From: a virus
Length of the DNA: 64,000 nt
Virus record (IMG/VR): IMGVR_UViG_3300018432_000002
Coordinates: 1-64,000 of that record
Direction: 5' to 3' (one strand)
A model generated the notes under the pieces. It was not told where the DNA came from, made no database searches, and saw only the letters and a list, made by a program, of their open reading frames with translations. A program made the position numbers and the translations under genes. Positions 2,294 to 43,458 of the stretch are shown in pieces. The stretch's first letter is position 1. The number at the start of each line of letters is the position of its first letter.

Positions 2294-2436
2294 CCACGCC
2301 CGTGATTCCCCTGCTCGCCGACGAAGACGTGCAGCTGGTCGACGTCGACACTGCTCTGATCCTCGACACCGTCCTTGACCTGCAGCCCGTGGACTGGAAC
2401 GACGAGGACCAGTACGACCGGGACGGGGCTGCCTGA
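2290..2436 (+). CDS. small acidic hypothetical protein (48 aa, below ORF-track cutoff)
   Basis: ATG 2290 overlaps the previous stop (ATGA); its TGA overlaps the next ATG (TGATG); high GC3. Confidence 0.4.
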   Translation: MTTPVIPLLADEDVQLVDVDTALILDTVLDLQPVDWNDEDQYDRDGAA

Positions 2437-2789
2437 TGGGCTACCTGAACCCCCACACCCACAACCTGGATGGCCACCGCCCGCTGGTGGTGACGATCTG
2501 CGGCTCAACCCGCTTCCGCACCGAGATGGCCGAGGCCAACCGGGTGCTGACCCTGGCCGGCCACATCGTGCTGGCGCCGGGCGTGTTCGCCCACGACGGC
2601 GATGAGATCACCGAGGAGCAGAAGCGCGAGCTGGACGACCTGCACTTCGCCAAGATCCGCATGTCGGACGGCGTCTACATCGTCAACGTCGGCGGCTACG
2701 TGGGCGAGTCGACCGGTCGGGAGATCGAGTATGCCCGGCAGCTGGGCAAGCTGATCACGCATCTGGTTCCGGTCGGGGCTGCGGCGTGA
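2436..2789 (+). CDS. nucleoside 2-deoxyribosyltransferase-like (Rossmann-like) protein
   Basis: Pattern ICGSTRF...LHxxKIxxSDxVYIVNxxGYxGxSTxxEIxYA is typical of the NDT-like phage family; the family call is from memory. Confidence 0.55.
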   Translation: MGYLNPHTHNLDGHRPLVVTICGSTRFRTEMAEANRVLTLAGHIVLAPGVFAHDGDEITEEQKRELDDLHFAKIRMSDGVYIVNVGGYVGESTGREIEYARQLGKLITHLVPVGAAA

Positions 2790-2965
2790 TGGGCGACTTC
2801 CTGATCCGGCTCATGTGGGCCGCCGTCGTCGCCCTGGTCGTGAAGGGTGGGGTGGCGCTGCTCGGCAGCACAGCCCCGTGGTGGCTCGCCGCTGGGCTCG
2901 GCGGGGTGCTGCTGTTCCTGATCGTTCCGTGGTGGAGTCGCAGCGCTGGGGCAGGCGTCCGGTGA
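2789..2965 (+). CDS. small membrane protein (58 aa, two hydrophobic segments)
   Basis: TGATG coupling with the previous gene; sequence MGDFLIRLMWAAVVALVV...LLFLIVPWW; ends 5 nt before the rusA start. Confidence 0.45.
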   Translation: MGDFLIRLMWAAVVALVVKGGVALLGSTAPWWLAAGLGGVLLFLIVPWWSRSAGAGVR

Positions 2966-2970
2966 CAGCC

Positions 2971-3372
2971 ATGACCATCACCCGAAGCTGGCAGCTCACC
3001 ATTCCCGCCCCGGCGATCTGGCTGAACGCGAACCAGCGCACCGACCTGCGACGGCAGACCCCGGACCGTCGGGCGTGGCGTGACGCCGGCCGGGTGTATG
3101 CGATGCAGGCGAAGCTACCCAAGCTTCAGCGGGCGCACATCCTCGCCGAGTTGTGCTTTGCGGATGCGCGCCGCCGGGATGTCCACAACCTGTATCCGAC
3201 GATCAAAGCGCTGGTCGACGGCCTGATCGATTTCGGGCTCCTCCCCGATGACGACCACCTGCACCTGGTCGGCCCGGACCTGCGTTATGGGCCGCGGATC
3301 GCCAAGCGGGTGGGTGGCGTGTCCGGTGAGGTTCGTCTGACCGTCACTGACCTGAGCGGTGAGCAGCCATGA
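2971..3372 (+). CDS. rusA: RusA-family Holliday junction resolvase
   Basis: Motif RRRDVHNLYPTIKALVDGLIDFGLLPDDD (D-x2-N...K..D.L...DD). Start moved to ATG 2971 within ORF 2815..3372. Confidence 0.85.
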   Translation: MTITRSWQLTIPAPAIWLNANQRTDLRRQTPDRRAWRDAGRVYAMQAKLPKLQRAHILAELCFADARRRDVHNLYPTIKALVDGLIDFGLLPDDDHLHLVGPDLRYGPRIAKRVGGVSGEVRLTVTDLSGEQP

Positions 3373-6765: not shown

Positions 6766-7047
6766 CTACTCGGCCGTGTCCCCGGCCTTCTCGACGAGCG
6801 AAGCGACGTACTCGCGTGTGTATCCGGCTCGGCGCCCGACTTCGGACTTCGACATGCCTGACCGTACGGCTGCCACGATCGCGGCGTGCAGCGCAGCCCG
6901 CTGCTTTTCGAGCTGGGCTTCGACGCGTTGGAAGGACTTCGCCGCTTCGTCGAGGGAGAGCGCCTCGGGGGTTTTGGTGAGGCGTGGAGTCCTGGGCATG
7001 GTCGGGATTGTCGCATGACGGTGATCGCGAAGCGAGGTAGCGGACAT
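6766..7047 (-). CDS. small HTH transcriptional regulator (the only reverse-strand gene in the early region)
   Basis: HTH-like MSKSEVGRRAGYTREYVASLV; GGAAGG RBS upstream of ATG 7047; convergent with the 6401..6760 gene and divergent from 7156. Confidence 0.65.
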   Translation of the reverse strand: MSATSLRDHRHATIPTMPRTPRLTKTPEALSLDEAAKSFQRVEAQLEKQRAALHAAIVAAVRSGMSKSEVGRRAGYTREYVASLVEKAGDTAE

Positions 7048-7068
7048 GGTTATCGGCCTTCCGGGGAC

Positions 7069-7097
7069 TTGATAGTGAGAACTGACTCCGCAATACT
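7069..7097 (+). promoter_or_regulatory. candidate sigma70-type promoter (TTGATA-17 nt-AATACT) for the operon starting at 7156
   Basis: Hexamers read directly in the A/T-richer 108-nt intergenic region. Confidence 0.3.
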
Positions 7098-7155
7098 AGT
7101 TCGCGTACCTAGCTGACGTGAAGAGACCGTCGGCACCTCTTCAAAGGAGTTCCAG

Positions 7156-7356
7156 ATGCCCAAGCACGCAGACGACGAGCTGGTCCTGTTCGGCTACAGC
7201 AGCGACTTCAATGTCGGCTTCGAGGATCGCCACGGCGATGACCGGGGGGTGACTTGGGGCGAGTGGCGTCAGATGAACTCGACCGAACGCGAACGGGTCA
7301 TGCAGGAGTACGTCAACGAGCTGGTTGAGGTCTTCGTCGTGGACGGAGAGAACTGA
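7156..7356 (+). CDS. hypothetical acidic protein
   Basis: AAAGGAG RBS upstream; TGATG coupling with the next gene. Confidence 0.6.
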   Translation: MPKHADDELVLFGYSSDFNVGFEDRHGDDRGVTWGEWRQMNSTERERVMQEYVNELVEVFVVDGEN

Positions 7357-8138
7357 TGAGCACCACCAGCAAGATCGAATGGACCGAGAAGACGTGGAAC
7401 CCCACCACCGGATGTGACCGCATCTCCCCCGGGTGCGACAACTGCTACGCCCTCACCCTCGCCAAGCGACTCAAGGGCATGGGCCAGGCCAAATACCAGA
7501 ACGACGGAGACCCGCGAACCTCCGGCCCTGGCTTCGGCCTGAGCGTCCACCCCGACTCCCTGAGCGAGCCGCTGCGCTGGCGCAAGCCCACCGTCGTGTT
7601 CGTCAACTCCATGTCCGACCTGTTCCACGCCCGAGTCCCCCGCGAGTTCATCGCGCAGGTCTGGGACGTCATGGCCCGAACGCCGCAGCACACCTACCAG
7701 GTGCTCACGAAACGGCCCGAGCGCTTGCCCCGAGTGCTCGCTGACCTGCCCGAGCTACCGAACGTGTGGCTCGGCACGTCGATCGAGTCCGACGATTTCA
7801 CCCGTCGCGCAGACTCCCTTCGTGCTGCGCCGGCCGCCGTCCGGTTCATCTCCGCCGAACCGCTGCTCGGCCCGCTCCCGTCGCTCGACCTGAGTGGGAT
7901 CGACTGGCTGATCCTCGGCGGCGAGTCCGGCCCCGGCTCCCGGCCGCTCGACCTGGGCTGGTTCCGCGAGCTAATCGCTATGGCCCGAGATTCGGGTACC
8001 GCCGTGTTCGTCAAGCAACTCGGCTCTGTCTGGGGGCGTGGCGCTGGCGCCGACAACAAGGGCGGCAACTGGTCCCTGTGGTCTGACTGGCTCCGAGTCC
8101 GGGAGTACCCGCGCATTGCCGAGGCGGTGGCCCGATGA
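7356..8138 (+). CDS. phage Gp37/Gp68 family protein (DUF5131)
   Basis: N-terminal IEWTEKTWNPTTGCDRISPGCDNCYA and FVNSMSDLFH / ISAEPLLGP / LILGGESG blocks are characteristic of this family. Confidence 0.85.
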   Translation: MSTTSKIEWTEKTWNPTTGCDRISPGCDNCYALTLAKRLKGMGQAKYQNDGDPRTSGPGFGLSVHPDSLSEPLRWRKPTVVFVNSMSDLFHARVPREFIAQVWDVMARTPQHTYQVLTKRPERLPRVLADLPELPNVWLGTSIESDDFTRRADSLRAAPAAVRFISAEPLLGPLPSLDLSGIDWLILGGESGPGSRPLDLGWFRELIAMARDSGTAVFVKQLGSVWGRGAGADNKGGNWSLWSDWLRVREYPRIAEAVAR

Positions 8139-8359
8139 CTCACTTCCACGCCTGCGACGCGACCTGCGCGATCCAGTCCGACGTCGTCGACAAGGCCGAG
8201 TTCGACGCCTGGGTGAACAACCTGCTGAAGCGCACCCCTGAGTCGTGGGACGGCGACGCGAGCGCCGAGTACATCGTCGGCGAATACCTGCACGAGCTTG
8301 AGCGACGCGTCCTTGCTTTCGGCGGCTCGCTTGAGAAGCACCCTGAGGACGCATCGTGA
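8135..8359 (+). CDS. hypothetical protein
   Basis: Coupled ATGA start, high GC3. Confidence 0.55.
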   Translation: MTHFHACDATCAIQSDVVDKAEFDAWVNNLLKRTPESWDGDASAEYIVGEYLHELERRVLAFGGSLEKHPEDAS

Positions 8360-8553
8360 CCGGTTGGGGCGAGCTGGAACGCGGTGACCTCGCTGCCGGG
8401 GTCACCCGCCACCCGCTGCGCAAAAGCATCGCCGTGACAGTCCGTCGTGGCACAACCGTCTACACCGCCGCGTACTGCCGCAACGAGGAAGAAGCTGACC
8501 GACTGTGGGCGGCCCTGGTCGAGCTGTCCGGCGCCGAACGGGAGGTGTCGTGA
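8356..8553 (+). CDS. hypothetical protein
   Basis: GTGA-coupled ORF. Confidence 0.5.
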   Translation: MTGWGELERGDLAAGVTRHPLRKSIAVTVRRGTTVYTAAYCRNEEEADRLWAALVELSGAEREVS

Positions 8554-8780
8554 CCGCCCCTGACGTCCGAACCACCCCTGACGGCCTGTGCAAGGGCGGT
8601 GAGTGGGTGTGGGCAGGTGACCGGAAACTCGGGCGGATCTTCCCCCGGATCGTGGCCGCCCCGTCCGGTGAGTGGTGGGGCAAACGGTTCGGGGTGGACG
8701 CCCACAAATGCGACAGCCGGCAGGAAGCACTCGACTTCGTGACCAGGACAGCCCGACTCGCATCCGGAGAGACGACATGA
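8550..8780 (+). CDS. hypothetical protein
   Basis: GTG 8550 overlaps the previous TGA; GGGAGG RBS; within ORF 8505..8780. Confidence 0.5.
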   Translation: MTAPDVRTTPDGLCKGGEWVWAGDRKLGRIFPRIVAAPSGEWWGKRFGVDAHKCDSRQEALDFVTRTARLASGETT

Positions 8781-9016
8781 CCACCGAATGGCCGCTCGAA
8801 TCCAAGCGCCTCGAAGCGCTCAAGGAAGCCGTCCGGTACGCCAAGCAGCGCGCCGATGATCTGCACGTCAGTGACCCGGAGGATGCCGCCGAGTGGGCGA
8901 TGGTCGCCGACATCGTCAGCACCGAGGGAGGCGCGATTCAGGGCCGTGACCTGTGGCCGACAATCCGCGACCACCACGCCCGCCTCGCCGCCCAGAACGA
9001 CACGGAGGACTCCTGA
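8777..9016 (+). CDS. hypothetical protein
   Basis: ATGA coupling at 8777; within ORF 8672..9016. Confidence 0.5.
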   Translation: MTTEWPLESKRLEALKEAVRYAKQRADDLHVSDPEDAAEWAMVADIVSTEGGAIQGRDLWPTIRDHHARLAAQNDTEDS

Positions 9017-19997: not shown

Positions 19998-20477
19998 GTG
20001 CCTCCTCGCCTACCCGACGACAAACGCGCCGCGATCCTCGCCGACATCCAGGCAGCCCGAAAGAGCCGCGCCCAGATCGGACGCGACCACGGCGTAAGCG
20101 CCTGGACGGTCGGCAACATCGCCAAGGAAGCGCAGATCGATGGTGCGTTCTCTCGGGAGAAGACCCAAAACGCGACCGCCGCGGCGGTGGCTGACAGTCG
20201 GGCGATGCGAGCGGCCGAGGCGATGGCGGCAATGGCCGCCGCGCCGCAACTGCGTTTGAATGTGCTGGCGTCGGAGACTGGGCGCGACGCTCAAGGTTGG
20301 GCAGTCGCTTACGGAATCATGATCGACAAGCACGCGATGCTGGAGAAGCACGACTCCGGCAGCAGTGACGCGGCGACTTCGCTGCTTGACGCTGTTGCGA
20401 ATGGGTTGCAGGCCGCGTTCGACGCAACCACGGCCGCAAGTGATCAAGGCGCGGAAAAGGTAGAATCAGAGCAATAA
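19998..20477 (+). CDS. terS: terminase small subunit (HTH type)
   Basis: Position upstream of TerL; N-terminal HTH RAQIGRDHGVSAWTVGNIAK; follows a 130-nt non-coding region. Confidence 0.65.
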   Translation: MPPRLPDDKRAAILADIQAARKSRAQIGRDHGVSAWTVGNIAKEAQIDGAFSREKTQNATAAAVADSRAMRAAEAMAAMAAAPQLRLNVLASETGRDAQGWAVAYGIMIDKHAMLEKHDSGSSDAATSLLDAVANGLQAAFDATTAASDQGAEKVESEQ

Positions 20478-20538: not shown

Positions 20539-21279
20539 GTGCCTGACGATACCTGCTGCGTGCAGGAATGTACGCGACCCATCAAGGTCAAGAGCCGCAA
20601 ACTCTGCGGCATGCACGACATGCGCCGACGCCGTACTGGCGATCTTCAACCCAACCGGCCATGCCGCCACGACCGCCGCGCGGACGGGCACCTCTGGTGT
20701 TCACGCTGCGAGACCCACAAGGAACCCAGCGGCTTCTACCGCAACCGGGCAACCAAGACGGGCCACGACGGTGTTTGCATTGCATGCACCGTCCAGCGAC
20801 GGGCCGAAACTTCGGTTGGCCGCTCCGTCACTCGGAAGGCATGGCTGAGTCGGCCAGGCGTGCATGATCGAGTTAAGGCCAACAAACGGCGCTACTACCA
20901 GTCGGCGGACCGGGAACGTTCGACTGAGATCAAGCGCATGTGGCGGAAGAACAACCCCGAGCGCCTGAGACTTCAGATTCGTGCCCAGAACGCCGCTCGA
21001 TACGCCCGGTTCAAAAACGCACCGGGCAGGGCCAATGCGACCCAGATCGCGGCCCGATGGGACTACTACGGCGGGCGGTGCTGGATATGCGGCGCCTCAG
21101 CCACCGACACGGACCACGTCAAGCCGCTCGCGGCGGGTGGCTCGAACTGGCCTGCGAACCTGCGTCCCTCGTGCAGTCCATGCAATCGCAGCAAGTCGGA
21201 TGCATGGCCCTATGAACCCCGCACCCACGCTCGCGCTCTCGCCGAAGCAGATCGCCTCGATTGTCCAGTCGCGGCATAG
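20539..21279 (+). CDS. HNH endonuclease (terminase-associated)
   Basis: C-terminal DTDHVKPLAAGGSNWPANLRPSCSPCNRSK; several CxxC pairs; lies between terS and terL. Confidence 0.85.
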   Translation: MPDDTCCVQECTRPIKVKSRKLCGMHDMRRRRTGDLQPNRPCRHDRRADGHLWCSRCETHKEPSGFYRNRATKTGHDGVCIACTVQRRAETSVGRSVTRKAWLSRPGVHDRVKANKRRYYQSADRERSTEIKRMWRKNNPERLRLQIRAQNAARYARFKNAPGRANATQIAARWDYYGGRCWICGASATDTDHVKPLAAGGSNWPANLRPSCSPCNRSKSDAWPYEPRTHARALAEADRLDCPVAA

Positions 21280-22527
21280 CCGCATTGCCCTGTGGTCTGG
21301 GGCAGTCCGCTCGGGAAAACGATCGCCTCTCTGATCGCCTTCGTGCTTGCGGTCAGAGAGGCCCCCCACTCGGGCCTGATCATCATTGCGGGGAGAACCC
21401 TGCAGACGATCGAGCGAAACCTGCTTGACCCGCTTCAGGACCTCGCGCTGTTCGGCGCTGTCGCAGACACGGTCCAGCACACCCGAGGATCGAACGTTGC
21501 CGTCATCCTCGGCCGCACCGTGCACCTCATCGGCGCGAACGACTCGCGTAGCGAAGGCCGTCTTCGAGGACTCACTGCCTGCCTCGGCATGATTGACGAG
21601 GCCACGCTGGTACCGAAGGCCTTCTTCACGCAGTTCCTGGCCCGGCTCTCCGTTCCCGGTGCACGCCTACTCCTTACAACCAACCCTGATTCACCTGCGC
21701 ATTGGCTGCGCAAGGAATTCATCCAGCGGGCCGGCGAACTCGACCTTGCCCACTTCCACTTCACTCTCGACGACAACCCGTCCCTGGCCCCTGAGTACGT
21801 CGCCGCCATCAAGGCCGAGTTCACCGGCATGTGGTTCAAGCGAATGGTCCTTGGACTCTGGGTTTCCGCCGAGGGCGCCGTCTACGACATGTGGGATTCG
21901 GACCGCCACGTCATCGACATCATCCCGCCGATCTGGCGGTGGATCTGCGCCTCCGTCGACTATGGGACGTCAAATCCGCTGCATGCGCTCCTGCTCGGCA
22001 TCGACGCCTCCCAGACGATCTACGTGGCGTCGGAGTGGCGCCACAGTGCTCGGGATACCCGGCGTTCCCTGACGGACGCCGAATACTCGGCCGAACTGAA
22101 GAAGTGGCTCGCCGACTACCGGCAGCCCGGACTTCAGGCGACCGGAGTGACGCCCGAGGCGATCGTGGTGGACCCGTCCGCCGCATCGTTCATCGAGCAA
22201 CTGTGGCGCGACCGGATGACCCCCACGCCAGCCGACAACAGCGTGGCCGACGGCATCCGCCTCGTCTCCTCGGTGCTCGGCGCCGGGAAGTTGAAAGTCC
22301 ACCGCTCATGCAAGGCGCTCATCGATGAGTTCCCCGGCTACTCGTGGGACGACAAGAAGGCGCTGCGCGGCGTGGACGCGCCGATCAAGGTTGATGACCA
22401 CGGGCTGGACGCGCTGAGGTACGGCGTAAAGACCACCGAGAGTGCCTGGCGCCGACCGAACGGCTTCCAGATGCCACATACGCCCCGCCCGTTCGACGAG
22501 GTCGACCTTATGGGCGCCGCTATGTAG
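21212..22527 (+). CDS. terL: terminase large subunit. It reads intact only with a -1 shift at 21313-21319 (frame A 21212..21319, frame B 21319..22527)
   Basis: Frame A gives MNPAPTLALSPKQ...LWSGAVRSGK and frame B continues TIASLIAF...; together they form Walker A GAVRSGKT and a protein of about 438 aa. Confidence 0.8.
21313..21362 (+). promoter_or_regulatory. candidate -1 programmed ribosomal frameshift signal (G_GGA_AAA + 5-nt spacer + 10-bp stem-loop)
   Basis: The heptamer is in the correct 0-frame phase; GCCTCTCTGA (21325-21334) pairs with TCAGAGAGGC (21353-21362); 0-frame TGA at 21332-21334. Confidence 0.55.
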
Positions 22528-23994: not shown

Positions 23995-26325
23995 GTGGCC
24001 GCCCGCAAGTTCGACCCGGCACGACACCCGAGGGACCGGTTCGGCCGCTTCACAAAATCCCGGACGGTCAAAGCGTCGGCGAAGGACAAGGCCGCGGCCC
24101 GGGAGGTTGCCGAAGGCTTCCAGCCGCAGGCGGTCGGCCGCCAGGAACGTGCCGCCTACCTGCAGCGGATTGCCGGCAGTCAGCCCACCGACGCGTTCGG
24201 GGATGTGCTCGAGGCGAACAAGGCGCTGCGTTCGGGTAAGGACTCGGACGCTGCCGAACGGCTCAAGGCCGCTGCGGTTGAACTTCCGGACGACATGCTG
24301 CTGTCCCGGGCGGTCCCCCTGTCGGTGTTTGGTCGCACTGACCCGCAGTCGCTGCAGGGCATGAAGGTCCGCGACGCAGGGTTCGCACCGGCGCAGCTCG
24401 GCACCGTCCGGCCCGTCGCCGACCACGTGCGCATGCACATGGCGGTTCCTGCGGGCACGCGTGCCGTGGTGAACCCGGAGACAGGCGAGATTGCCCTCGA
24501 CCACGACACCGAGATGGTCGTGGCGAAGGTCGCGGTAAACGATGCAGGCGGCGTCGACATGTGGCTGACTGTCCTGCCGAAGCAAAGCGTGCAGCGATCC
24601 GAGGACGACGGTGAGGGAGGCGACAAAACCAGCCCCACCGCAGACGGTGAGGCTGTCGAAGCGGACGACGCAGGACGCGCCGAGCTGATGAAGCTGAAGT
24701 TGCCTGAGCTGCGTGAACGGATGCGGGAACGTGGGCTGAAGCCGGGCCGTATGCGTAAATCCCAGATGGTCGACGCGCTCGTAGCTGACGAAACTGGCAA
24801 CGACGAGCCGGCAGGCGACACGCCCCCAGAACCCGAACCGCAGGCCGCACCGGATCCGGGGCCGGCCTCGGTCCCGGGCGACCAGACCGCAGCGCCGGCC
24901 ACGGATGCCCGATCGTTCGACGAACGAATCAAAGCCGCCGCCAAGGGCCGTAAAGCCCTCGACGCGATGCCGCTGTCGCTGCTACCCCGCAGCCGCGGCA
25001 ACCCGGACCTGACACCGGAACGCGCGAAGATCCTCCGGAGTCACCTGGTCGGTGAGACCGGGGATATCGACAGGGCACTCCAGAAGGGCGGCGACACCCC
25101 GAAGGCCACCGCCGACCGTGTCGCCGTTTTCGACGGCATCATGCAGGCATCGCCGCTCGGGCAGGACGCCGTCTACTACCGGGGCGCATCCACAACCCGC
25201 GGCATCTTCGGCGACGCAGCGACAGGGGATCTGACCGGCCACGAGTGGGTGGAGCACCGCTTCGCCGAGGTTTCCCCCTCTGACCAGACAGCACAAAACA
25301 TGGCCGGGGGGCGCGGAGCGGTCCTGCGGATCCTCGCCCCTCAGGGCACTGGTGCTGCCGCCATTTCCGGTGGCGCTTCCCAGGAAGTGCTGCTGGACCG
25401 CGGGCACACATGGCGGGTCGTCAAGGATTCGGGGCCCCGACAGAACGCGCCGCGCCTGATCGACGTGGAAATCGTCCCGAAGACCGGTGATGAACCAGCC
25501 CGGATCAAGCCGGTCGAAGTCGAGGTCACCACGGCCGACAATCCACTGTCGGCAGAGCAGGTGGCGGCACTGCCGGACACCCCGCTAGGCCGCAGTATCG
25601 CCTCTGGTGTCGCTTCGTCGAAGACCCTGTCGGGTGGCGCCGTCGGTGATGTGCGGCTGGTGACGTTCGGCGACGGCAGTAAAGCCATCCAAAAGATCGC
25701 CAAGGCCGACTTTGCCGGCTCGTCGCAAACCGACCTGACCGACGGTGAAGTTCTCGCAGGTCGGCTGGGGCGGGCAATCGGCGCCCCCGTGCCGGAGGTT
25801 GTTCACACCCGCCAGTACGAGATTTTCATGGAGTACGTGCCGGCCGCGAAACCCGGCATGGCCGTCCTGAACAGGTACACGGACCTGGTGGAGCGTGCCG
25901 GCAAGTGGGAAGAGTTCGTCGACTCCCGCGACGGACGGCTGCTCGGTGTCCTCGACCTGGTCACGGCGAACGCTGACCGGCATGCCGGTAACTGGCTGGT
26001 CCGTAAGGACGGCACGATCACCGGTATCGACCACGGCCTGGTGTGGTCGAAGCGGCTGACTGGTGCTCCGGATGTGCGCTCCTCCAACCCGGAGTTCGAC
26101 AGCCCGTTCGCCGGAAGGTTCTTCGGCGACAACTTCTCGGAGCGGCGCGGCTGGCAACCGAACGATCTGAGCCCGGCGGACGTTTTGTGGATGCGCCGGC
26201 AGGCCGAAGGGTTGCGGGAAGAGTTTGACCGGCGTGGGCGTGGCGACTGGCTGGACTTCACCCTGACCCGCATTGATCAGCTCGGCGAGTATGCGCGCGG
26301 AACGACGGACAGGGTGGCGACGTGA
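23995..26325 (+). CDS. multi-domain putative virion-associated effector: ART-like domain, SAP/Rho_N-like motif, second ART domain (R, SxS, E present), C-terminal PI3/PI4-kinase-like domain
   Basis: N-terminal HPRDRFGRF motif; ANKALRSG...LSRAV...GEIALD; LKLPELRERMRERGL; ILRSHL...VYYRGAS...VSPSD...SQEVLLDRG; KAIQK...DRHAGNWLV...GIDHG. Confidence 0.7.
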   Translation: MAARKFDPARHPRDRFGRFTKSRTVKASAKDKAAAREVAEGFQPQAVGRQERAAYLQRIAGSQPTDAFGDVLEANKALRSGKDSDAAERLKAAAVELPDDMLLSRAVPLSVFGRTDPQSLQGMKVRDAGFAPAQLGTVRPVADHVRMHMAVPAGTRAVVNPETGEIALDHDTEMVVAKVAVNDAGGVDMWLTVLPKQSVQRSEDDGEGGDKTSPTADGEAVEADDAGRAELMKLKLPELRERMRERGLKPGRMRKSQMVDALVADETGNDEPAGDTPPEPEPQAAPDPGPASVPGDQTAAPATDARSFDERIKAAAKGRKALDAMPLSLLPRSRGNPDLTPERAKILRSHLVGETGDIDRALQKGGDTPKATADRVAVFDGIMQASPLGQDAVYYRGASTTRGIFGDAATGDLTGHEWVEHRFAEVSPSDQTAQNMAGGRGAVLRILAPQGTGAAAISGGASQEVLLDRGHTWRVVKDSGPRQNAPRLIDVEIVPKTGDEPARIKPVEVEVTTADNPLSAEQVAALPDTPLGRSIASGVASSKTLSGGAVGDVRLVTFGDGSKAIQKIAKADFAGSSQTDLTDGEVLAGRLGRAIGAPVPEVVHTRQYEIFMEYVPAAKPGMAVLNRYTDLVERAGKWEEFVDSRDGRLLGVLDLVTANADRHAGNWLVRKDGTITGIDHGLVWSKRLTGAPDVRSSNPEFDSPFAGRFFGDNFSERRGWQPNDLSPADVLWMRRQAEGLREEFDRRGRGDWLDFTLTRIDQLGEYARGTTDRVAT

Positions 26326-27609: not shown

Positions 27610-29364
27610 ATGCCTGACGTCGAACTCGCGCGCCGTGAAGGCGTAGAGCTTGTGAACTCCGGTTCGTGGCAGCTCCTCTCCGGCAGCTGGAACCCGAACA
27701 GCAAAGACATCGCCGACGCTGTTGAAGCGTCCAAATGCCCCGCCGTACGCCGTCCCCGACTCAAACTGGGACACCTGGACGAGCGGTTCAATCCCGCAGA
27801 CAATGCGGTCCTCGACGGCACACCGGCGCTCGGTTGGTTCGACAACCTGCGCGCCAGCGCCGACGGCAACACCCTTGTCGGGGATCAGGTGGCGCTGCCA
27901 TGGCTGTCAGCCGTCCAGCCTGCCGCATGGCCCGACCGGTCGATTGAGGGCAAGTATCAGTCGCAGTGCGCTTTGGGCCATACCCACCCGTTTGTGGTGA
28001 CGGCGGTGTCGCTGCTAGGTGAAACCCCGCCGGGCATCCCGACACTGAAGTCCATCAAGACTCTCGACGATCTGCCCGCCGCCCTTGGTGTGGCGGCCTC
28101 CGGCGAAGCGTCCGAGGGCGGCGAAAGCGTCCAGGCGATCATCCGTGCTTCCGTCGAGGTGCACACCGGCACGATGGTGGCGCTGATCCCCACCGCCGAG
28201 GATGCGGCACGGCTAGCGGTCGGCGGGGGCGAGCCGGCCGACGAGCTGCACTGCACCTTGGCCTACCTGGGTGACGCCGCAGCCCTGGGCGCCGGTGGCC
28301 GCCAGGATGTCCTCGACGGCGTGACCCGTGCGGCGAACGGCCTGCCCGAGATCGAGGCGGACGCTTTCAGCCTGAACGTTTTCAACCCCGGAACGGCCAG
28401 CGACCGGGACACGTGCATTGTGCTCGGCCTGTCCGGCGATCCGATCGACGCCGTTCACGATCTGGTGTCGGAGGCGCTGCGGGAAGCCCTGTGGGATCGG
28501 CTGCTGGAACTGCCGCCCCCGCACCGCCCTTGGCACGCGCACATGACCTTGGAGTACACCGAGGACCTGGCGCGTCTGACCGCCCTCACCGACCGGATCG
28601 GCCCGGTCCGGTTCGACCGGATCCGGATCGCGTTCGGCGGTGAACGCATCGACATTCCGCTGATCCCGCCCAGCGAGGACGAGACGGTGGCCGCGTCGGC
28701 TGCCATCCGGGACCGCATCGCACCGATCCGCGAGCGACTGGCCCGGCTCGAAACCGTCGCCGCTGCGGCAAGCCCCACCTCTGATCTCCCGGCCGCCGAG
28801 CCGGAGCAAGAAATCAACCCCGAACCGATTGAGGAGGACTTTGTGTCCACCGAACTGAGCGGTCTCCGCTCACGGCTCGGCCTGCCCGACGACGCCGACC
28901 TTGCCGCCATTGAGGCGAAGGTCGACGCGATCAAGGCGGACGCCGAGAAGACCCCCGAGCCGACCCCCGAGATGGTCGCTGCTTCCGCCGCCGCCGTCGA
29001 GCAGGCCACCAAGGCTGAGGCGGAGAAGGACGAGCTCCGCAAGGAAGTCCAGGTCCTTGCCTCGCAGATGCAGCAGGTCACCACGGAGCTGTCCGCGGCG
29101 AAGGCAGCCCAGGCTGCCACCGTCAAGGCCAGCGTGTTCGACGCTGCGATCAAGGACGGCAAGCTGAAGCCCGCCGACCGCGAGCAGTGGGAGAAGGACT
29201 ACGACGAGGCGCCGGGCGCGATCACCCGCGTCCTGGCGTCCATCGCTGTCGGCACCGCCGTTCCGGTGATGGCGTCCGGCACCGTCGGTGACCCGGAGCC
29301 GCAAGGCTCCGACGACGACTGGGACGCCATCGTTTCCCGCCTCGACAGCCCGAAGGCGGTCTGA
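27610..29364 (+). CDS. Mu gpI-like protease/scaffolding protein with an embedded 2H phosphoesterase (LigT-like) domain
   Basis: N-domain LGH...ALGWFDNL...DGNTL...SIEG...AVSLLGETPPGIP; two HxT motifs, HCTLAY (nt 28249) and HMTLEY (nt 28540); C-terminal coiled coil ...AAIKDGKLKPADREQWEKDY. Confidence 0.7.
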   Translation: MPDVELARREGVELVNSGSWQLLSGSWNPNSKDIADAVEASKCPAVRRPRLKLGHLDERFNPADNAVLDGTPALGWFDNLRASADGNTLVGDQVALPWLSAVQPAAWPDRSIEGKYQSQCALGHTHPFVVTAVSLLGETPPGIPTLKSIKTLDDLPAALGVAASGEASEGGESVQAIIRASVEVHTGTMVALIPTAEDAARLAVGGGEPADELHCTLAYLGDAAALGAGGRQDVLDGVTRAANGLPEIEADAFSLNVFNPGTASDRDTCIVLGLSGDPIDAVHDLVSEALREALWDRLLELPPPHRPWHAHMTLEYTEDLARLTALTDRIGPVRFDRIRIAFGGERIDIPLIPPSEDETVAASAAIRDRIAPIRERLARLETVAAAASPTSDLPAAEPEQEINPEPIEEDFVSTELSGLRSRLGLPDDADLAAIEAKVDAIKADAEKTPEPTPEMVAASAAAVEQATKAEAEKDELRKEVQVLASQMQQVTTELSAAKAAQAATVKASVFDAAIKDGKLKPADREQWEKDYDEAPGAITRVLASIAVGTAVPVMASGTVGDPEPQGSDDDWDAIVSRLDSPKAV

Positions 29365-38983: not shown

Positions 38984-39312
38984 CCACCGATGTGAGTGTG
39001 GATTGGGCGCCGGGAGACGACGGCGACCAGCTGCTCAACGCCCTGCGCGACATCATCCAGAAGCACTACCACGGCGATGTCCTCGCAGCGCTCGGTGGCC
39101 TGCCCGTCAGGCCGAAGCCCGCGCCTTGGTCGACGGAGGCCCTGCTGCTTGCGCGGGTCGAGCACCGCCTGGCGCGCATGGAGTGGACCCAGAATGGCCG
39201 GAAGGGCCCGGAGCCGAAGCTTCTGACTTCGGCGGACGATGCGGCTGAGCGTCTGCGTCGTATCGGTCTGCTGCCGGACGAAGACGAAGGCACGACGGGG
39301 GTGACGGCATGA
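38980..39312 (+). CDS. hypothetical protein
   Basis: GTGA coupling at 38980. Confidence 0.5.
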   Translation: MTTDVSVDWAPGDDGDQLLNALRDIIQKHYHGDVLAALGGLPVRPKPAPWSTEALLLARVEHRLARMEWTQNGRKGPEPKLLTSADDAAERLRRIGLLPDEDEGTTGVTA

Positions 39313-39893
39313 GCGAGACCCCAGAGGACGAGACCATCCAGGGTGTCCCGGTCCTGAAGCCCGCCAAGGCCAACCCCAAACCGAGCCCCGTCCTTGGTCG
39401 CACCGTCGCCGACGATCTGGATGCCGCCTACGCGGAGATCCGCCGCGAGCCGTATTTCTTCACCTGGTCTGGCCGTGAGTGGTCCCTGCCGCACATCGGC
39501 GACCTGGACTACCGCGTGCTGGCCGAGATCGAGTCGATGGACGCCATCGACACCGAGCAGGTCCTCAGCCTTTTCTCCCGCATGTTCACCGCCGACCAGG
39601 TTGCGGCGTGGGCCGAAGTGCAGGTCCCCACCCCCGTCCTGTTCATGCTGTTCGAGCGGTGGGTGGCGCACGGCGGCGGCAAGTTGGGGGAAGCGCCGGC
39701 CTCGAGCGGCTCCTCCGGGAGCATTGGAAAGAGCTCGAGGCGGACTTCCGGTTCAAGTACGGTCTCCGCCTCTCGGAAGTCGTCTTCGGCCAAACCGAAG
39801 AAGGCCGCGGCGAAGCGCACACCGCGCAAGGCTGCCGCGGCACCTGCGGTTGTGGAACTGGCCGACTCCCCGCCAGGGAGCTCCTCAACCTGA
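39309..39893 (+). CDS. tail assembly chaperone (G-like, 0-frame product)
   Basis: Position before the tape measure; WSLPHIGDLDYRVLAEI... Confidence 0.7.
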   Translation: MSETPEDETIQGVPVLKPAKANPKPSPVLGRTVADDLDAAYAEIRREPYFFTWSGREWSLPHIGDLDYRVLAEIESMDAIDTEQVLSLFSRMFTADQVAAWAEVQVPTPVLFMLFERWVAHGGGKLGEAPASSGSSGSIGKSSRRTSGSSTVSASRKSSSAKPKKAAAKRTPRKAAAAPAVVELADSPPGSSST

Positions 39894-40174
39894 TCCAAGG
39901 GTTGGCCGGGTACGAGGATTCACTGCTGCACAAGAAGCTGCGCGGACCGATGGCGTCGTGGGACATGACCGCCCTACTGCTGCGGCAGATCGACCTGCGG
40001 CTTGCCGGTGCGAACTGGCAGCGGGCGGGCGGCAAAGGACAGAAGCCCAAGCCGATCGATCTGCCGTCTACGACGAGCCGCGGCAACCAGCCGGCCAGAG
40101 GCAAGCCGTCGGGTGACGACCTCGCCCAGCGGCTGCGGAACCTGAACCTGATCCCTCCCGGAGCCTCTGACTGA
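39309..40174 (+). CDS. tail assembly chaperone GT-like fusion via -1 frameshift at G_GGG_GAA (39686-39692)
   Basis: The -1 frame continues ...GGSAGLERLLREHWKELEADFRFKYGL...WDMTALLLRQIDLRLAGANW (T-like) and ends at TGA 40172-40174, 20 nt before the tape measure gene. Confidence 0.7.
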
Positions 40175-40194: not shown

Positions 40195-43100
40195 GTGACC
40201 TCTCCGACGAGCGTTGGCCAGGTCAGTGTCGAGGTGGTCGCCGAACTGCGATCCCTCGTGAAGGACATCCGCAAGCGCGTCGAGGAAGGCCTCCGGAACC
40301 TCGACGTTGGCAGGCGGATCCGCGACTCCATCGGCCAGGACCCCATCTCGGTGCCGGTTGAGATGGACGTCGACACCAGCGCCATCAACCAGCAGCTGCG
40401 CAACCTGAACGGCCTGCGCGTGCCGGTCGAGGTCGAACCGGAGACTGGTAGCTTCGCCGGCCGGTTGCGGTCGCAGTTGGCGCGCGTGACGTCGCAGGTG
40501 CGGTCAGCCGTCACCGTCGATGTCGACGTTGACCAGAACCGGTCGTCGTCAAGGCTCGGAAGTCTTCTGCAGGGCGCTGTCGGTGCTGCAGGCGCGGTGG
40601 GTGGGGCACTGACCGGGGCGGCGGGTGCCGCAGGTTCACTGCTGGGCGCACTCGGCCCGGTGGTCGGTGTTGTCGGCGCGATCGCTGCCGGCCTGACGTT
40701 GCTGCCGCCTCTGCTGGCAGCGGCGGCAGGTGCGGCGGCGGCGATTCCCGGTGCAATGGCCGGCATCGGTGCGGCGGTCGGCACCCTGGCGCTCGGATTC
40801 AAAGGCATCTCCGAAGCATTCAAGCCGTCCGCAGGTGGCGGCGGCGGCGGCGGTGGTGGGGCGGCCGGCCAGGCGGCGAACCAGGCCCGCCAGATCGCGT
40901 CCGCGTCCCGGCAGGTGGAGGCAGCGCGGCGGGGTATCGCCGCGGCGAACCGCCAGTATTTGGCGTCGCTGCGGTCGGTGGCCGCCGCAGAGCGTGGCCT
41001 GGTGGCGGCGCAACGCGCTGTCGGCGAGTCGCAGGACACGCTCATCGAAGCCCAGCAGCGCGCCATCCGTAGCCAGGAGGCCGTGAATCGGGCCCGCCGT
41101 GAGGCCCGCGAGGACATTGAAGACCTCGGCCGGGCGTTGCGCGGGGCGGTCATCTCCGAGGCGGAGGCGGCTCAGGCCGTCAACGATGCCTTGTTCGCCT
41201 TGAACGAGGCGAAACTGACCGGCGACCTGAAAGCGATCGCCCGCGCGTCGAACGCCTACGACCGTTCGGTGTTGTCGTTGGAGGATGCCAAGGATTCCGT
41301 CGAGGATTTGACGGAGGAGTCGCAGGAGTTCGCGGCGAAGGGCGTCGAGGGCAGCGACAAGGTTCAGGGCGCCCTTGAGGACCAGGTATCGGCGTGGGAT
41401 GCGGTCAAGGACGCGCAGCAGGGTGTTCGGGACGCACAGAACGGTGTCATTGACGCCACCGACTCTCTGATCTCCGCGCAGGACGGCGTCAAGTCGGCCC
41501 TGGACGGCCAGAAGTCCGCCACGGATGGGCTGATCGCGGCGCAGGAGTCGCTGGCGGCGGCGCAGCAGAAAGTTGCTGCCGGTTCTGGCGGGGTGGCCAA
41601 AGAGGTCATCAAGCTCGCCCCGGCGGCGCAGAGGTTCGTCAACGCGATCAAGGCACTCAAGCCGGCGTTCGAGAACCTGCGACTTGATGTGCAGCAGAGG
41701 CTGTTCGAGGGCCTTGACAAGACGGTGACCCGGGTAGGTGAGGCGTGGATTCCGCGGCTGCGGGAGACGCTGGGCAGCTACGCGGACACGTTCAACGGAT
41801 TTTTCAAAAACCTCGGCAAGAGCATCACCACGCCGAAGTTCATGGACGATATCCAGGCCGGCGCGGAGGGGTTCCGGCAGCTGCTGGACAAGCTCGGCGC
41901 GTCGATCACTACCAGTCTGGTACCGGCGTTCGGTGCCCTGTCGAAGGCGGCCGGGCCGTTCCTGTCGAAGCTCGGCGACGAACTGGCCGGGATCGTCACC
42001 GAGTTCTCGAACTGGGTGCTTCAGGGCGAGAAGACCGGCGGCCTGGAATCGTTTTTCGACAAGGCCGCGAAGGCGATGCACGACATCTTCGACATTGGCA
42101 GGTCCGTCGGGTCGATCATCGCCAGCCTGTTCGAGATCATCACCGGGGACAACACGAACACCGGCAAGACCCCACTGGAGTCCTTCAAGCAGGCGCTCGA
42201 CAAGGTCGCCGTGTGGCTGAAGGACCCTGACAATCAGCAGCGCATCCGCCAGCTGATCGACGACGTAAAAGAGGCAGGCCAGCAGTTCCTGGAGTTCGCC
42301 AACACGGTCCGTCGTGCCTTCGACCGCGTCCAGGAAGCGTTCTTCCGCCTCCAAACCTTCATCTACCAGCTGTCCGACATTTTCGGCCTGAGCGGTTCGG
42401 CCGGCGGCGAGGTCGGCAAAGCGATCAGCGGTGCCGTGACCGGCAACGACGGTGGCAGCCTGGTCGAGCAGTTCCGCGAGGGCGGCCGGAACATCATTGA
42501 TGGCCTGATCGAAGGCATCGAGGAACGTCTCGGCCAGTTCTCGATCGCCGGCCTGCTGTGGGAGGGCCCTGATTCTCTGCTGGGCCGGATCCGGGCCGGG
42601 TTCGGGATCGCGTCGCCGTCAACGGTCATGGCTGAGGTCGGCCGGAACCTGATTGACGGGCTTGTCCTCGGAATTGGGGAGAAGTTCGGGCAGCTGGTGG
42701 ACAAGGTGCGGGAGATCCCGGACCGGGTCCGGGGCGCCCTTTCCGGTGCCGGTACGTGGCTTCAGCAGCATGGTCAGAGTGCGATCAACGGCCTGAGCTC
42801 GGGTGTCTCGTCGAGGATGGCGGACCTGCGTAGTCGTGCCGGCCAGGCCCGAACAACAGTGCAGAACGCCCTGTCGAATGCGGGCACGTGGCTCTCCACC
42901 CATGGGCGCAACGCGATTATCGGCCTTGCCAACGGCATGACCTCCTGGTTCGGGAACCTGCGCGCCTACGCGGGCAACGCCCGGGTGACGGTGCAGAACG
43001 CTCTGGCCAACGCCGGGTCGTGGCTGGTGAATCATGGACGCGCCGTGATTTCCGGCCTTATGCAAGGCATTTCGTCGATGTTCAACACGCTCGGCTCGTT

Positions 43101-43458
43101 CCTCGGCGGGGTCGGCCGGTTCATTCAGGCCAACAAGGGGCCGATCGAGAAGGACCGGGTACTGCTCCGCCCGGCTGGTGCCGCGATCATGTCTGGCTTG
43201 ATCACCGGGATTGCGGACCGGAAATCCGCGCTGGCTGCGGAACTGAGCGACGTGACCTCGATCGTCGCAGGGACGAACCTGCCGGCGCTCGGCGCCGACA
43301 TGGACGCGTCGATCCGGTCCAGCCTGTCGGTGGCGGACAACAAGACGATCACCGCGGAGTGGAAGACCGGCAGCTCGGGAGACCCGGTGCTTGACTCGCT
43401 GCGGGACATGATCGGGTTCCGGTTCCGGGGAGACCCCGTCGCGGCGCTGTCGAGCTGA
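40195..43458 (+). CDS. tape measure protein
   Basis: 1087 aa, extended coiled-coil A/Q/E-rich segments, hydrophobic Gly/Ala-rich region, poly-Gly; canonical position. Confidence 0.9.
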   Translation: MTSPTSVGQVSVEVVAELRSLVKDIRKRVEEGLRNLDVGRRIRDSIGQDPISVPVEMDVDTSAINQQLRNLNGLRVPVEVEPETGSFAGRLRSQLARVTSQVRSAVTVDVDVDQNRSSSRLGSLLQGAVGAAGAVGGALTGAAGAAGSLLGALGPVVGVVGAIAAGLTLLPPLLAAAAGAAAAIPGAMAGIGAAVGTLALGFKGISEAFKPSAGGGGGGGGGAAGQAANQARQIASASRQVEAARRGIAAANRQYLASLRSVAAAERGLVAAQRAVGESQDTLIEAQQRAIRSQEAVNRARREAREDIEDLGRALRGAVISEAEAAQAVNDALFALNEAKLTGDLKAIARASNAYDRSVLSLEDAKDSVEDLTEESQEFAAKGVEGSDKVQGALEDQVSAWDAVKDAQQGVRDAQNGVIDATDSLISAQDGVKSALDGQKSATDGLIAAQESLAAAQQKVAAGSGGVAKEVIKLAPAAQRFVNAIKALKPAFENLRLDVQQRLFEGLDKTVTRVGEAWIPRLRETLGSYADTFNGFFKNLGKSITTPKFMDDIQAGAEGFRQLLDKLGASITTSLVPAFGALSKAAGPFLSKLGDELAGIVTEFSNWVLQGEKTGGLESFFDKAAKAMHDIFDIGRSVGSIIASLFEIITGDNTNTGKTPLESFKQALDKVAVWLKDPDNQQRIRQLIDDVKEAGQQFLEFANTVRRAFDRVQEAFFRLQTFIYQLSDIFGLSGSAGGEVGKAISGAVTGNDGGSLVEQFREGGRNIIDGLIEGIEERLGQFSIAGLLWEGPDSLLGRIRAGFGIASPSTVMAEVGRNLIDGLVLGIGEKFGQLVDKVREIPDRVRGALSGAGTWLQQHGQSAINGLSSGVSSRMADLRSRAGQARTTVQNALSNAGTWLSTHGRNAIIGLANGMTSWFGNLRAYAGNARVTVQNALANAGSWLVNHGRAVISGLMQGISSMFNTLGSFLGGVGRFIQANKGPIEKDRVLLRPAGAAIMSGLITGIADRKSALAAELSDVTSIVAGTNLPALGADMDASIRSSLSVADNKTITAEWKTGSSGDPVLDSLRDMIGFRFRGDPVAALSS

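Follow-up and report, generated by a model that had tools for sequence, protein, structure and literature searches.

Probable expression of the large terminase subunit by programmed -1 ribosomal frameshifting within the Walker A motif in a group of soil actinobacterial phages

How can a phage produce the large subunit of its terminase (TerL) when the gene encoding it is broken between two reading frames inside the ATP-binding loop? The question is raised by a locus in IMG/VR virus record IMGVR_UViG_3300018432_000002, of which positions 1 to 64,000 were analyzed (this whole stretch of 64,000 nucleotides (nt) is referred to here as the window). The terL gene of this virus is split between two frames within the Walker A motif (P-loop), as an earlier note made from the letters alone had described, and every coordinate of that description proved to be correct when checked against the sequence. 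The answer favored here, to which we assign a probability of about 0.87, is that a programmed -1 ribosomal frameshift is the means by which TerL is expressed and would be obligatory for the large terminase. This reading, which the earlier note had proposed, has gained support in that the split, the slippery heptamer and the hairpin are kept in relatives, the stem shows compensatory changes and both segments of the gene are under purifying selection.

From the ATG at 21212, the 0 frame reads MNPAPTLALSPKQIASIVQSRHSRIALWSGAVRSGK in translation, continues with RSPL and terminates at TGA 21332-21334, the position of which relative to the heptamer is identical in all seven of the split sequences compared below. 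The -1 frame is open from 21280 and holds an open reading frame (ORF) at 21292-22527, of 411 amino acids (aa) and in the -1 frame relative to ATG 21212; in all seven split sequences this frame opens at a conserved TAG located 34 nt 5′ of the heptamer. It is this frame that encodes the remainder of the ATPase domain and the nuclease domain. The claim that only the joined product has a proper P-loop holds, as the -1 fusion gives a protein of 438 aa with GAVRSGKT, a motif of the form GxxxxGK[ST] that the stand-alone ORFs lack, the stand-alone -1-frame ORF reading GSPLGKT, with the wrong Walker A spacing. The missing base, which had been placed in the A-run (A4 instead of A5), is unassignable when judged against unsplit homologues that read TCN GGN AAR ACN, since the third base of the Gly or the Ser codon could equally well have been lost. 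The ATG start of segment 1 is conserved within the subgroup to which the window belongs, and a second subgroup (L009, L011 and L021) has a 0-frame GTG start with a GGAGG Shine-Dalgarno sequence 5 nt upstream.

The joined protein is matched by TIGR01547 (PBSX-family TerL) at 115.3 bits against a cut-off of 105.05, by Pfam Terminase_6N at 38.4 against a cut-off of 22, and by phrog_2 TerL at 6.7e-49. It aligns with the solved structure of the D6E large terminase (PDB 5OE8) over residues 27-408 (E = 2.5e-69), and the alignment runs across the junction, with LWSGAVRSGKTIASL, which spans it, placed opposite ICDGSIRAGKTIVMS of 5OE8 and GAVRSGKT of the fusion placed opposite GSIRAGKT of the 5OE8 P-loop. 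A predicted RNase H-like nuclease domain is also recognized at the C-terminus of the joined protein, where PHROG TerL C-terminal families match at 4e-32 and which the 5OE8 alignment covers, the matches to Pfam Terminase_6C and Terminase_3C being below cut-off. Among the 120 best homologues, 111 have GA[VI][RS]SGKT near residue 28, and a single-frame motif is missing only from the split clade and from one fragment at a contig end. The homology to unsplit TerLs changes frame exactly at the boundary S-G-K/T, with segment 1 matching the N-termini of the unsplit proteins.

At the junction, the heptamer can be read directly as tcG_GGA_AAA_c (21313-21319), a canonical X_XXY_YYZ sequence in the correct 0-frame phase, which allows both tRNAs to re-pair in the -1 frame. 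Five nucleotides past it begins a perfect 10-bp inverted repeat, in which GCCTCTCTGA (21325-21334) is complementary to TCAGAGAGGC (21353-21362), and the spacer, which falls within the range of about 5-9 nt for canonical signals, keeps this length of 5 nt across the split relatives. The stem can be extended to 14 pairs, with arms at 21325-21338 and 21349-21362 and a 10-nt loop; of the four additional pairs that had been proposed, the apical G:C and C:G are invariant, while the two adjoining the core vary and are mismatched in some sequences. The hairpin dominates the predicted folding, the segment 21305-21375 having a folding energy of -34 kcal/mol (z = -3.4) that none of 200 shuffled sequences reached. 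In this phage, GGA makes up 7.5% of Gly codons and AAA 25% of Lys codons, and the codons that form the stem are rare (TCT, 4% of Ser; AGA and AGG, 1.2 and 3.6% of Arg). A search of Rfam left the element unmatched, its sole hit being a small RNA at chance level (E = 2.2), no intrinsic-terminator-like or promoter-like site was found at the hairpin, and no tRNA genes that could tune slippage are encoded in the window.

One sequence alone is insufficient to settle the question, because GGGAAAA is unenriched in the window (2 occurrences against 3.3 expected) and the inverted repeat has a chance of about 1%. The 64 kb contain about 98 exact inverted repeats that reach 10 bp or more and lie within 40 nt, a count in which overlapping palindromes are frequent and which puts the chance of such a repeat 4-9 nt past a given heptamer at roughly 0.01 or less in one genome. 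It is conservation across relatives that decides the matter.

When the fused product was searched against 5.8 billion proteins, the N-terminus was missing from each of the eight top clusters (85-100% identity), which were 381-411 aa long, whereas matches at 72% identity or below were all full length. The split clade that emerged from this comparison comprises seven distinct sequences, namely the window and L008, L009, L011, L021, L022 and L023 (L008 being the same contig as the IMG/VR entry L017, and L009 the same sequence as L010). They come from JGI 3300044811 and 3300062558, from ENA ERZ27336835/29, ERZ27313809 and ERZ923669, and from Logan SRR30224795 and SRR6958552, the last of which contains an assembly identical to the window sequence. 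The samples are independent, and several of the sequences are MEGAHIT assemblies (k127/k141) of Illumina data. At 78-83% nt and 85-91% aa identity to one another, the split sequences form a star-like tree, and yet all seven retain the same one-base offset, an invariant TCGGGAAAAC and the stem-loop, as the earlier note had anticipated for relatives of a genuine signal. A close relative with A5 and a continuous ORF, which by the terms of the earlier note would have refuted the signal, was never encountered; continuous ORFs occur only at 76% identity or below, and there without the heptamer and the hairpin. Pattern scans of IMG/VR, one with an upstream pattern independent of the heptamer and one with the heptamer and stem, found again only a known contig of 76 kb, and scans seeded with the protein, run on collections of genomes, metagenomes and viruses, brought in only relatives that are unsplit and more distant, so that the clade remains at seven distinct sequences and one uninformative fragment (L024). 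No isolate with this arrangement was found, all 180 of the 180 cultured-phage tblastn matches to this TerL being single-piece.

Both segments of terL are under strong purifying selection, each in its own frame. By the Nei-Gojobori method, dN/dS amounts to 0.065 when the 29 upstream codons that can be aligned are read in the 0 frame and to 0.09 across the entire fusion, at a dS of about 0.93. Between the upstream -1-frame stop and the heptamer, it is the 0-frame peptide (R-I-[AS]-L-W-S-G-A-V-R-S-G-K) that is conserved, and not the -1-frame peptide.

The RNA signals, in turn, are conserved beyond what the coding of the protein would need, as judged by suppression of synonymous change and by covariation. 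In the gap-free alignment of the seven split sequences (A1), 95.9% of the cells in the helix are paired, a share that falls to 36-49% if the 3′ partners are displaced by 1-3 columns, and RNAalifold recovers the same helix unprompted. Compensatory changes in the stem, which the earlier note had proposed as a check, were present as double, pairing-preserving changes at two base pairs: U:A is replaced by C:G at column pair 128:155 in L008 and L023, and C:G by U:A at column pair 134:149 in L011 and L022. All of them are synonymous in the -1 frame, where TCT alternates with TCC (Ser) and AGA with AGG (Arg). The sequences L011 and L022 are non-sister (0.3% bootstrap), from which it follows that the change at 134:149 arose more than once. 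Six of the eight codons that lie wholly in the heptamer or the stem arms do not vary, compared with a background fraction of 0.20 among similar codons elsewhere (P = 0.0013), and the remaining two are those of the covarying pair; the loop codons vary freely in A1. A sliding-window scan of the synonymous rate did not single out the region, whereas the test targeted to these codons did, the null result of the scan being due to the variable loop and to compensatory changes being scored as differences.

Two further elements were considered. A pseudoknot is unsupported, because the loop positions are free to vary at synonymous sites. A GGAG lies 15 nt 5′ of the heptamer in six of the seven split sequences, where it arises from the Trp-Ser codons TGG AGC/AGT, and the window has TGG TCT GGG G at this place (columns 92-96 of A1, corresponding to 21294-21298). 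We do not claim it as an upstream Shine-Dalgarno-like stimulator, as it is missing from the window and its distance exceeds that in dnaX; a GGAG may possibly act as a non-essential 5′ stimulator.

In the mechanism proposed here, ribosomes would initiate at ATG 21212 and read 36 codons in the 0 frame, until, with GGA in the P site and AAA in the A site, they would meet the stable hairpin 5 nt downstream, at the mRNA entrance. In a fraction of ribosomes, both tRNAs would slip back by one base, the Gly tRNA onto GGG and the Lys tRNA onto AAA, following which ACG ATC GCC and the rest of the -1 frame would be read, giving a TerL of 438 aa with an intact GAVRSGK-T and with ...WSGAVRSGKTIASLIAF... 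as its predicted junction-spanning stretch. Ribosomes that do not slip would end at the TGA four codons on and release a 40-aa peptide, which is probably discarded. TerL output would thus likely be held at a set fraction of initiations. Slippage itself we infer, the evidence being the architecture, its conservation and the selection acting on it.

The alternative in which no recoding takes place supposes that an internal start gives rise to an N-terminally truncated TerL, with the 40-aa peptide acting in trans or not at all. This is how gene callers annotate the locus (P0001-P0008), and in the window, L008 and L009 a GTG or TTG does lie seven codons before GKT. In the other four of the seven sequences, however, the -1 frame lacks any ATG, GTG or TTG from the upstream TAG as far as the GKT codons, and its first start comes 9-21 codons past the P-loop lysine. 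The -1-frame peptide that such a start would add before GKT is the unconserved one, and its GSPLGKT is misspaced, whereas every other complete homologue among the top 120 has GA[VI][RS]SGKT; truncation would also leave the conserved heptamer and spacer and the covarying hairpin unexplained. This makes it very unlikely as an account of the locus. Read-through of the stop codon of the upstream HNH endonuclease gene (see below) into the terL body, which is in the same frame, was also considered and rejected, the intervening -1-frame peptide being unconserved and the resulting P-loop defective.

Transcriptional slippage, in which the RNA polymerase would add a base in the G3/A4 run so that some of the mRNAs become continuous, would lead to an identical protein product. 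Known programmed transcriptional realignment takes place on A or T runs of about 7 or longer, with any stimulatory hairpin located upstream in the nascent RNA (Atkins et al. 2016, PMC5009743). The runs at this locus are only 3 and 4 nt long, and the hairpin lies 5 nt downstream, which is the geometry of ribosomal -1 frameshifting, and we regard slippage by the polymerase as improbable to about the same degree as truncation.

Still less probable is an inactivating frameshift that would have left terL as a pseudogene in a decaying or domesticated prophage. The phage does have temperate features, including a Gp3-like recombination directionality factor at 101-1198, and all of the sequences are metagenomic, without an isolate. 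A dN/dS of 0.07-0.09 in both segments at a dS of about 0.9 argues against decay, as do the conserved synonymous sites in the heptamer and stem with their compensatory changes. Moreover, one of the relatives is an IMG/VR viral genome of 76 kb, the flanking genes are mosaic, which indicates actively recombining phages, and the structural module is complete and looks intact: downstream of temperate-phage early genes, the siphovirus-like late region encodes a TerS-like helix-turn-helix protein, the HNH endonuclease, TerL, a Mu-like portal, a protease, the capsid and major tail proteins, a chaperone pair and the tape measure.

The inverted repeat might also be mainly a DNA-level element, for example one related to cos or pac, an endonuclease site or a terminator, with which the split would coincide by chance. 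It is located about 100 nt into terL and beside an HNH gene, and in related Streptomyces phages the start of terL coincides with the genome end. The hairpin lacks a T-tract and is thus not terminator-like, and an RNA stimulator would be expected to show just such compensatory, pairing-preserving changes and a constant spacing of 5 nt to an invariant heptamer in phase. As the expression of the split gene would also stay unexplained, a purely DNA-level role is about as hard to credit as decay of the gene. Least probable of all is a sequencing or assembly error, a one-base homopolymer deletion in the G3A4 of a continuous terL, which the earlier note had named as a rival alongside an inactivating deletion, for which the short homopolymer junction and the single metagenome contig behind the window could speak, and which is excluded by the occurrence of the identical offset in diverged sequences from other, independent samples and other assemblers, MEGAHIT k127/k141 assemblies of Illumina data among them, with a continuous ORF in no member of the clade.

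It has to be noted that several points weigh against programmed frameshifting. There is no obvious Shine-Dalgarno sequence at the window's own 0-frame ATG, and the sample is small, with seven distinct sequences on a star-like tree. The change at column pair 128:155 may be a single event, as L008 and L023 are weakly sister (37% bootstrap), and the shuffle control for covariation is only moderately strong, with 3 of 500 shuffles reaching the observed score. The inverted repeat could act at the DNA level in addition to any role in RNA. As to the heptamer, it speaks for frameshifting that G_GGA_AAG has been described as highly shift-prone in Escherichia coli (PMC5009743), and against it that G_GGA_AAA itself was not found in the accessible part of the tabulated E. 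coli data.

How a programmed frameshift could have come about in this gene is suggested by the unsplit relatives, which comprise the Paractinoplanes prophages L003 and L004, the metagenomic sequences L012, L013, L018, L028 and L029, and the Streptomyces phages Austintatious and Alderaan. All read TCN GGN AAR ACN without a break; 11 of 14 unsplit loci have AAG for the Lys, mostly in the non-slippery GGC/GGT AAG, and their 60 nt downstream have minimum free energies of -15 to -29 kcal/mol and no comparable hairpin, compared with -30 to -40 kcal/mol in the split sequences. Austintatious has TCC GGG AAA ACG, and a one-base deletion just before or within the GGG of such a sequence would create G_GGA_AAA in phase. 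The split thus likely goes back to the deletion of one base from a Walker A coding sequence of the form TCN-GGG-AAA-ACN. The sequence coding for the "GKT" of Walker A would in that sense be preadapted, and the deletion partly self-rescuing. A hairpin made of rare synonymous codons would have been selected afterwards, leading to a higher slippage efficiency.

The frameshift cassette has a regular neighbor, an association that the earlier note had not seen. An HNH endonuclease gene stands directly upstream of terL in all seven split loci and in none of the eight unsplit ones, the eight unsplit relatives lacking both the HNH gene at this place and the recoding element. In these relatives the TerS-like gene abuts or overlaps terL directly, as in L003, where its homologue (2511-3005) overlaps the terL start as ATGCCTGA. 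The HNH ORF of the window overlaps the 5′ segment of terL by 68 nt out of frame and is in the same frame as the terL body, and its stop codon, TAG 21277-21279, falls within the invariant GCATAGCCG. The tail that follows the HNH domain is encoded by the 5′ region of terL and ends at the TAG inside an invariant CAT AGC. Two types of HNH protein, 38-40% identical, are found at this position, one of 246 aa and the other of 260-335 aa with extra Cys-rich N-terminal repeats, and HNH homologues in cultured phages occupy scattered, non-packaging positions.

The two halves of terL itself differ in their history. The nt homology between the window and six unsplit loci ends in the TerS-like gene and restarts at 21505. 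The ATPase domain of the split clade is 43-67% identical in aa to that of unsplit relatives, and the nuclease domain is 87-96% identical to that of Paractinoplanes-type relatives; comparison of the window (terL 21212-22527) with L003 (2998-4302) gives, from about residue 213 onward, an identity of 96-97% in aa and about 90% in nt for the nuclease domain, against 45-63% in aa for the ATPase domain. In the tree of codons 1-205 the split clade is monophyletic (100% bootstrap), whereas in the trees of codons 206-400 it never is, and the window pairs there with the unsplit prophage L003 of Paractinoplanes polyasparticus (100%). This suggests recombination at the boundary between the terL domains. 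As Paractinoplanes has an almost identical nuclease domain, an actinomycete resembling the Micromonosporaceae is the probable host.

The co-occurrence of HNH gene and frameshift, their out-of-frame overlap, the incongruent halves of terL and the scattered HNH homologues lead to the idea of a selfish, homing-type module made up of the HNH gene, the frameshift cassette and the neighboring DNA for the ATPase domain, a reading that we consider unlikely on balance though worth setting out. The target of the HNH enzyme would be the highly conserved DNA that encodes the P-loop in terL alleles free of the endonuclease, the deleted base and the recoded hairpin would make the carrier immune to its own nuclease, and programmed frameshifting would be the cost of keeping an essential gene functional. 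A precedent exists in phage T4, in which the HNH homing endonuclease gene mobA and the 50-nt bypass of gene 60 move as a unit, with the carrier shielded from cleavage by the recoding element (bioRxiv 10.1101/2022.08.31.505936, describing Bonocora 2011). As in T4, an HNH gene lies upstream and overlaps the 5′ end of the recoded gene out of frame, the recoding element stands a short distance into the gene and is lacking in endonuclease-free relatives, and the 5′ module has a different history from the remainder of the gene. Unlike in T4, the recoding is a -1 frameshift instead of a bypass, the target gene does not give two separate proteins, and a near-identical allele without the endonuclease is not available. 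Against a homing module it also counts that one and the same terL allele occurs with two HNH types, and the incongruent phylogenies could be due to the usual mosaicism of phages. The ends of any insert are unmappable, as the unsplit ATPase domains are so divergent.

The coordinates of the features are collected in Table 1.

Table 1. Positions (nt, window numbering) of the split terL gene, its recoding signals and related genes.
Feature	Position	Strand	Description
TerS-like helix-turn-helix gene	19998-20477	+	phrog_5536 match
HNH endonuclease ORF	20539-21279	+	246 aa; Pfam HNH and HNH_5 above cut-off; PHROG HNH / endonuclease VII families
terL segment 1	21212-21319	+	36 codons, 0 frame, MNPAP...GAVRSGK (translation); first seven Walker A residues
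Slippery heptamer G_GGA_AAA	21313-21319	+	X_XXY_YYZ; 0-frame codons TCG GGA AAA
terL segment 2	21319-22527	+	-1 frame, 402 codons, from ACG (Thr of GK-T) to TAG
Spacer CGATC	21320-21324	+	5 nt, heptamer to stem
Putative stimulatory stem-loop	21325-21362	+	10-bp core, two variable pairs, two to three apical G/C pairs, loop of about 10 nt
0-frame stop TGA	21332-21334	+	four codons 3′ of the heptamer, within the 5′ arm of the stem
Tail-chaperone pair	39309-40174		ORF 39309-39893 and -1-frame ORF 39479-40174, ending just before the tape measure

Elsewhere in the window, the 10-bp palindrome CCGGATCCGG occurs five times (at 142, 2035, 24850, 28617 and 42585), compared with 0.27 expected and with none of 100 shuffles reaching five, and it could be a protein-binding, restriction or methylation-related motif. 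The gene after the portal (23995-26325) encodes a protein of 776 aa with a C-terminal PI3/PI4-kinase-like domain (Pfam, 1.1e-07), and in L008 the same slot (6795-8930) encodes 711 aa with the ADP-ribosylating toxin domain PF03496, so that it looks like a position for variable "cargo" domains, as in MuF-type polymorphic toxins. A protein of 584 aa (27610-29364) combines a 2′-5′ RNA ligase-superfamily region, just under the Pfam cut-off, with a Mu-like prophage protease/scaffold domain, which is an unusual fusion for the head-maturation slot.

The best-known -1 frameshifts of phages are those of the tail chaperones, such as G/GT of lambda (Levin 1993; Xu, Hendrix and Duda 2004), with which the terL site shares a -1 slip in a late structural operon and a similar heptamer (G_GGA_AAG in lambda, G_GGA_AAA here). 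The site lies in terL, however, 19 kb upstream of the tape-measure gene (40195-43458), the shift occurs 36 codons into an enzyme gene, and the 0-frame product is a 40-aa stub, so that, unlike with G/GT, which yields two functional products with a shared N-terminus, only the shifted product can be functional; a strong covarying hairpin downstream is a further difference. The window has its own tail-chaperone pair, and the second, conventional site that the earlier note had placed at 39686 is less conventional than described: the sequence is ttG_GGG_GAA (39686-39692), a run of five G, and is not a strict X_XXY_YYZ heptamer, because GAA in the A site would re-pair on GGA.

With the OrfAB of IS3- and IS1-family elements and with dnaX, the terL site shares the architecture of heptamer, 5-6 nt spacer and stem-loop. 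As in the IS elements, the active enzyme would be made only as a frameshift fusion, so that frameshifting sets its level; in contrast to them, in which OrfA itself is a functional regulator, the stub has no evident role here, and the gene encodes an essential virion-assembly ATPase in which the shift falls within the P-loop.

Recoding of terL has been proposed before in actinobacterial phages. In Streptomyces phage Hau3 and the prophage StrepC.1, translational bypassing triggered by UUA has been put forward (PMC10732093, PMC5009743); three occurrences of this type are known, and experimental support for it is partial (PMC10732093, PMC5009743). There, too, recoding would be required for TerL, with gating of the terminase as the proposed role. 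Hau3 differs in that it has a TerL of another family (about 560 aa) and 10-nt inserts that start with UUA and are crossed by hopping, whereas there is no TTA in 21212-21362, the frames differ by one base and there is no insert relative to homologues. The first junction in Hau3 (…RLKGWG/KDPLL…) resembles the G-K of a P-loop, by appearance only (PMC10732093). For the terL of the Microbacterium prophage vB_MoxS-R1, which like ours consists of two ORFs in an actinobacterial phage, a -1 frameshift was speculated by its authors, who also cited Gordonia phage Nyceirae (PMC9030533); these are single genomes without a canonical slippery site or comparative evidence. We examined Nyceirae (L027, 1339-3010) as a precedent and rejected it: the split lies at the boundary between the ATPase domain (1339-2382) and the nuclease domain (2363-3010), and there is no obvious heptamer in the 20-nt overlap. 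The PRFect paper lists several genes other than chaperones with frameshifts, and terminase is not among them. Full-text literature searches found no established case of a -1 frameshift in a terminase gene, consistent with the unfamiliarity that the earlier note had remarked on.

The comparison of these sequences thus gives good support to a canonical -1 frameshift cassette in a new gene context in a group of soil actinobacterial phages. As -1 frameshifting in phages is treated almost as a signature of the chaperones, pipelines call this terL truncated, and all eight database entries of the clade lack the ATP-binding loop; a rule derived from this locus may help to rescue "broken" terminases in viromes, and the cassette itself, being compact, natural and of high GC content, could be used in frameshift reporters for Actinomycetota. 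A one-base deletion in the GGG-AAA-ACN codons of "GKT" makes its own slippery site, a route to recoding that could extend to P-loop genes generally. If the first Hau3 junction is indeed a P-loop, two unrelated actinophage terL families would be recoded at the same motif. Taken together with the Hau3 hypothesis, the locus would make the terminase a gene that recoding has repeatedly targeted in phages of actinobacteria. The linkage to the HNH gene offers a testable candidate for a second mobile cassette of endonuclease plus recoding element after T4 mobA/gene 60, and, if true, a mechanistically different one. As to its purpose, the frameshift may serve a fixed attenuation of TerL or a physiological gate, or it may be the footprint of a selfish HNH element; it may throttle or gate TerL synthesis, as the earlier note had proposed. 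An obligatory frameshift in Walker A would mean that recoding can gate an essential, low-copy enzyme of which the unshifted product is seemingly useless.

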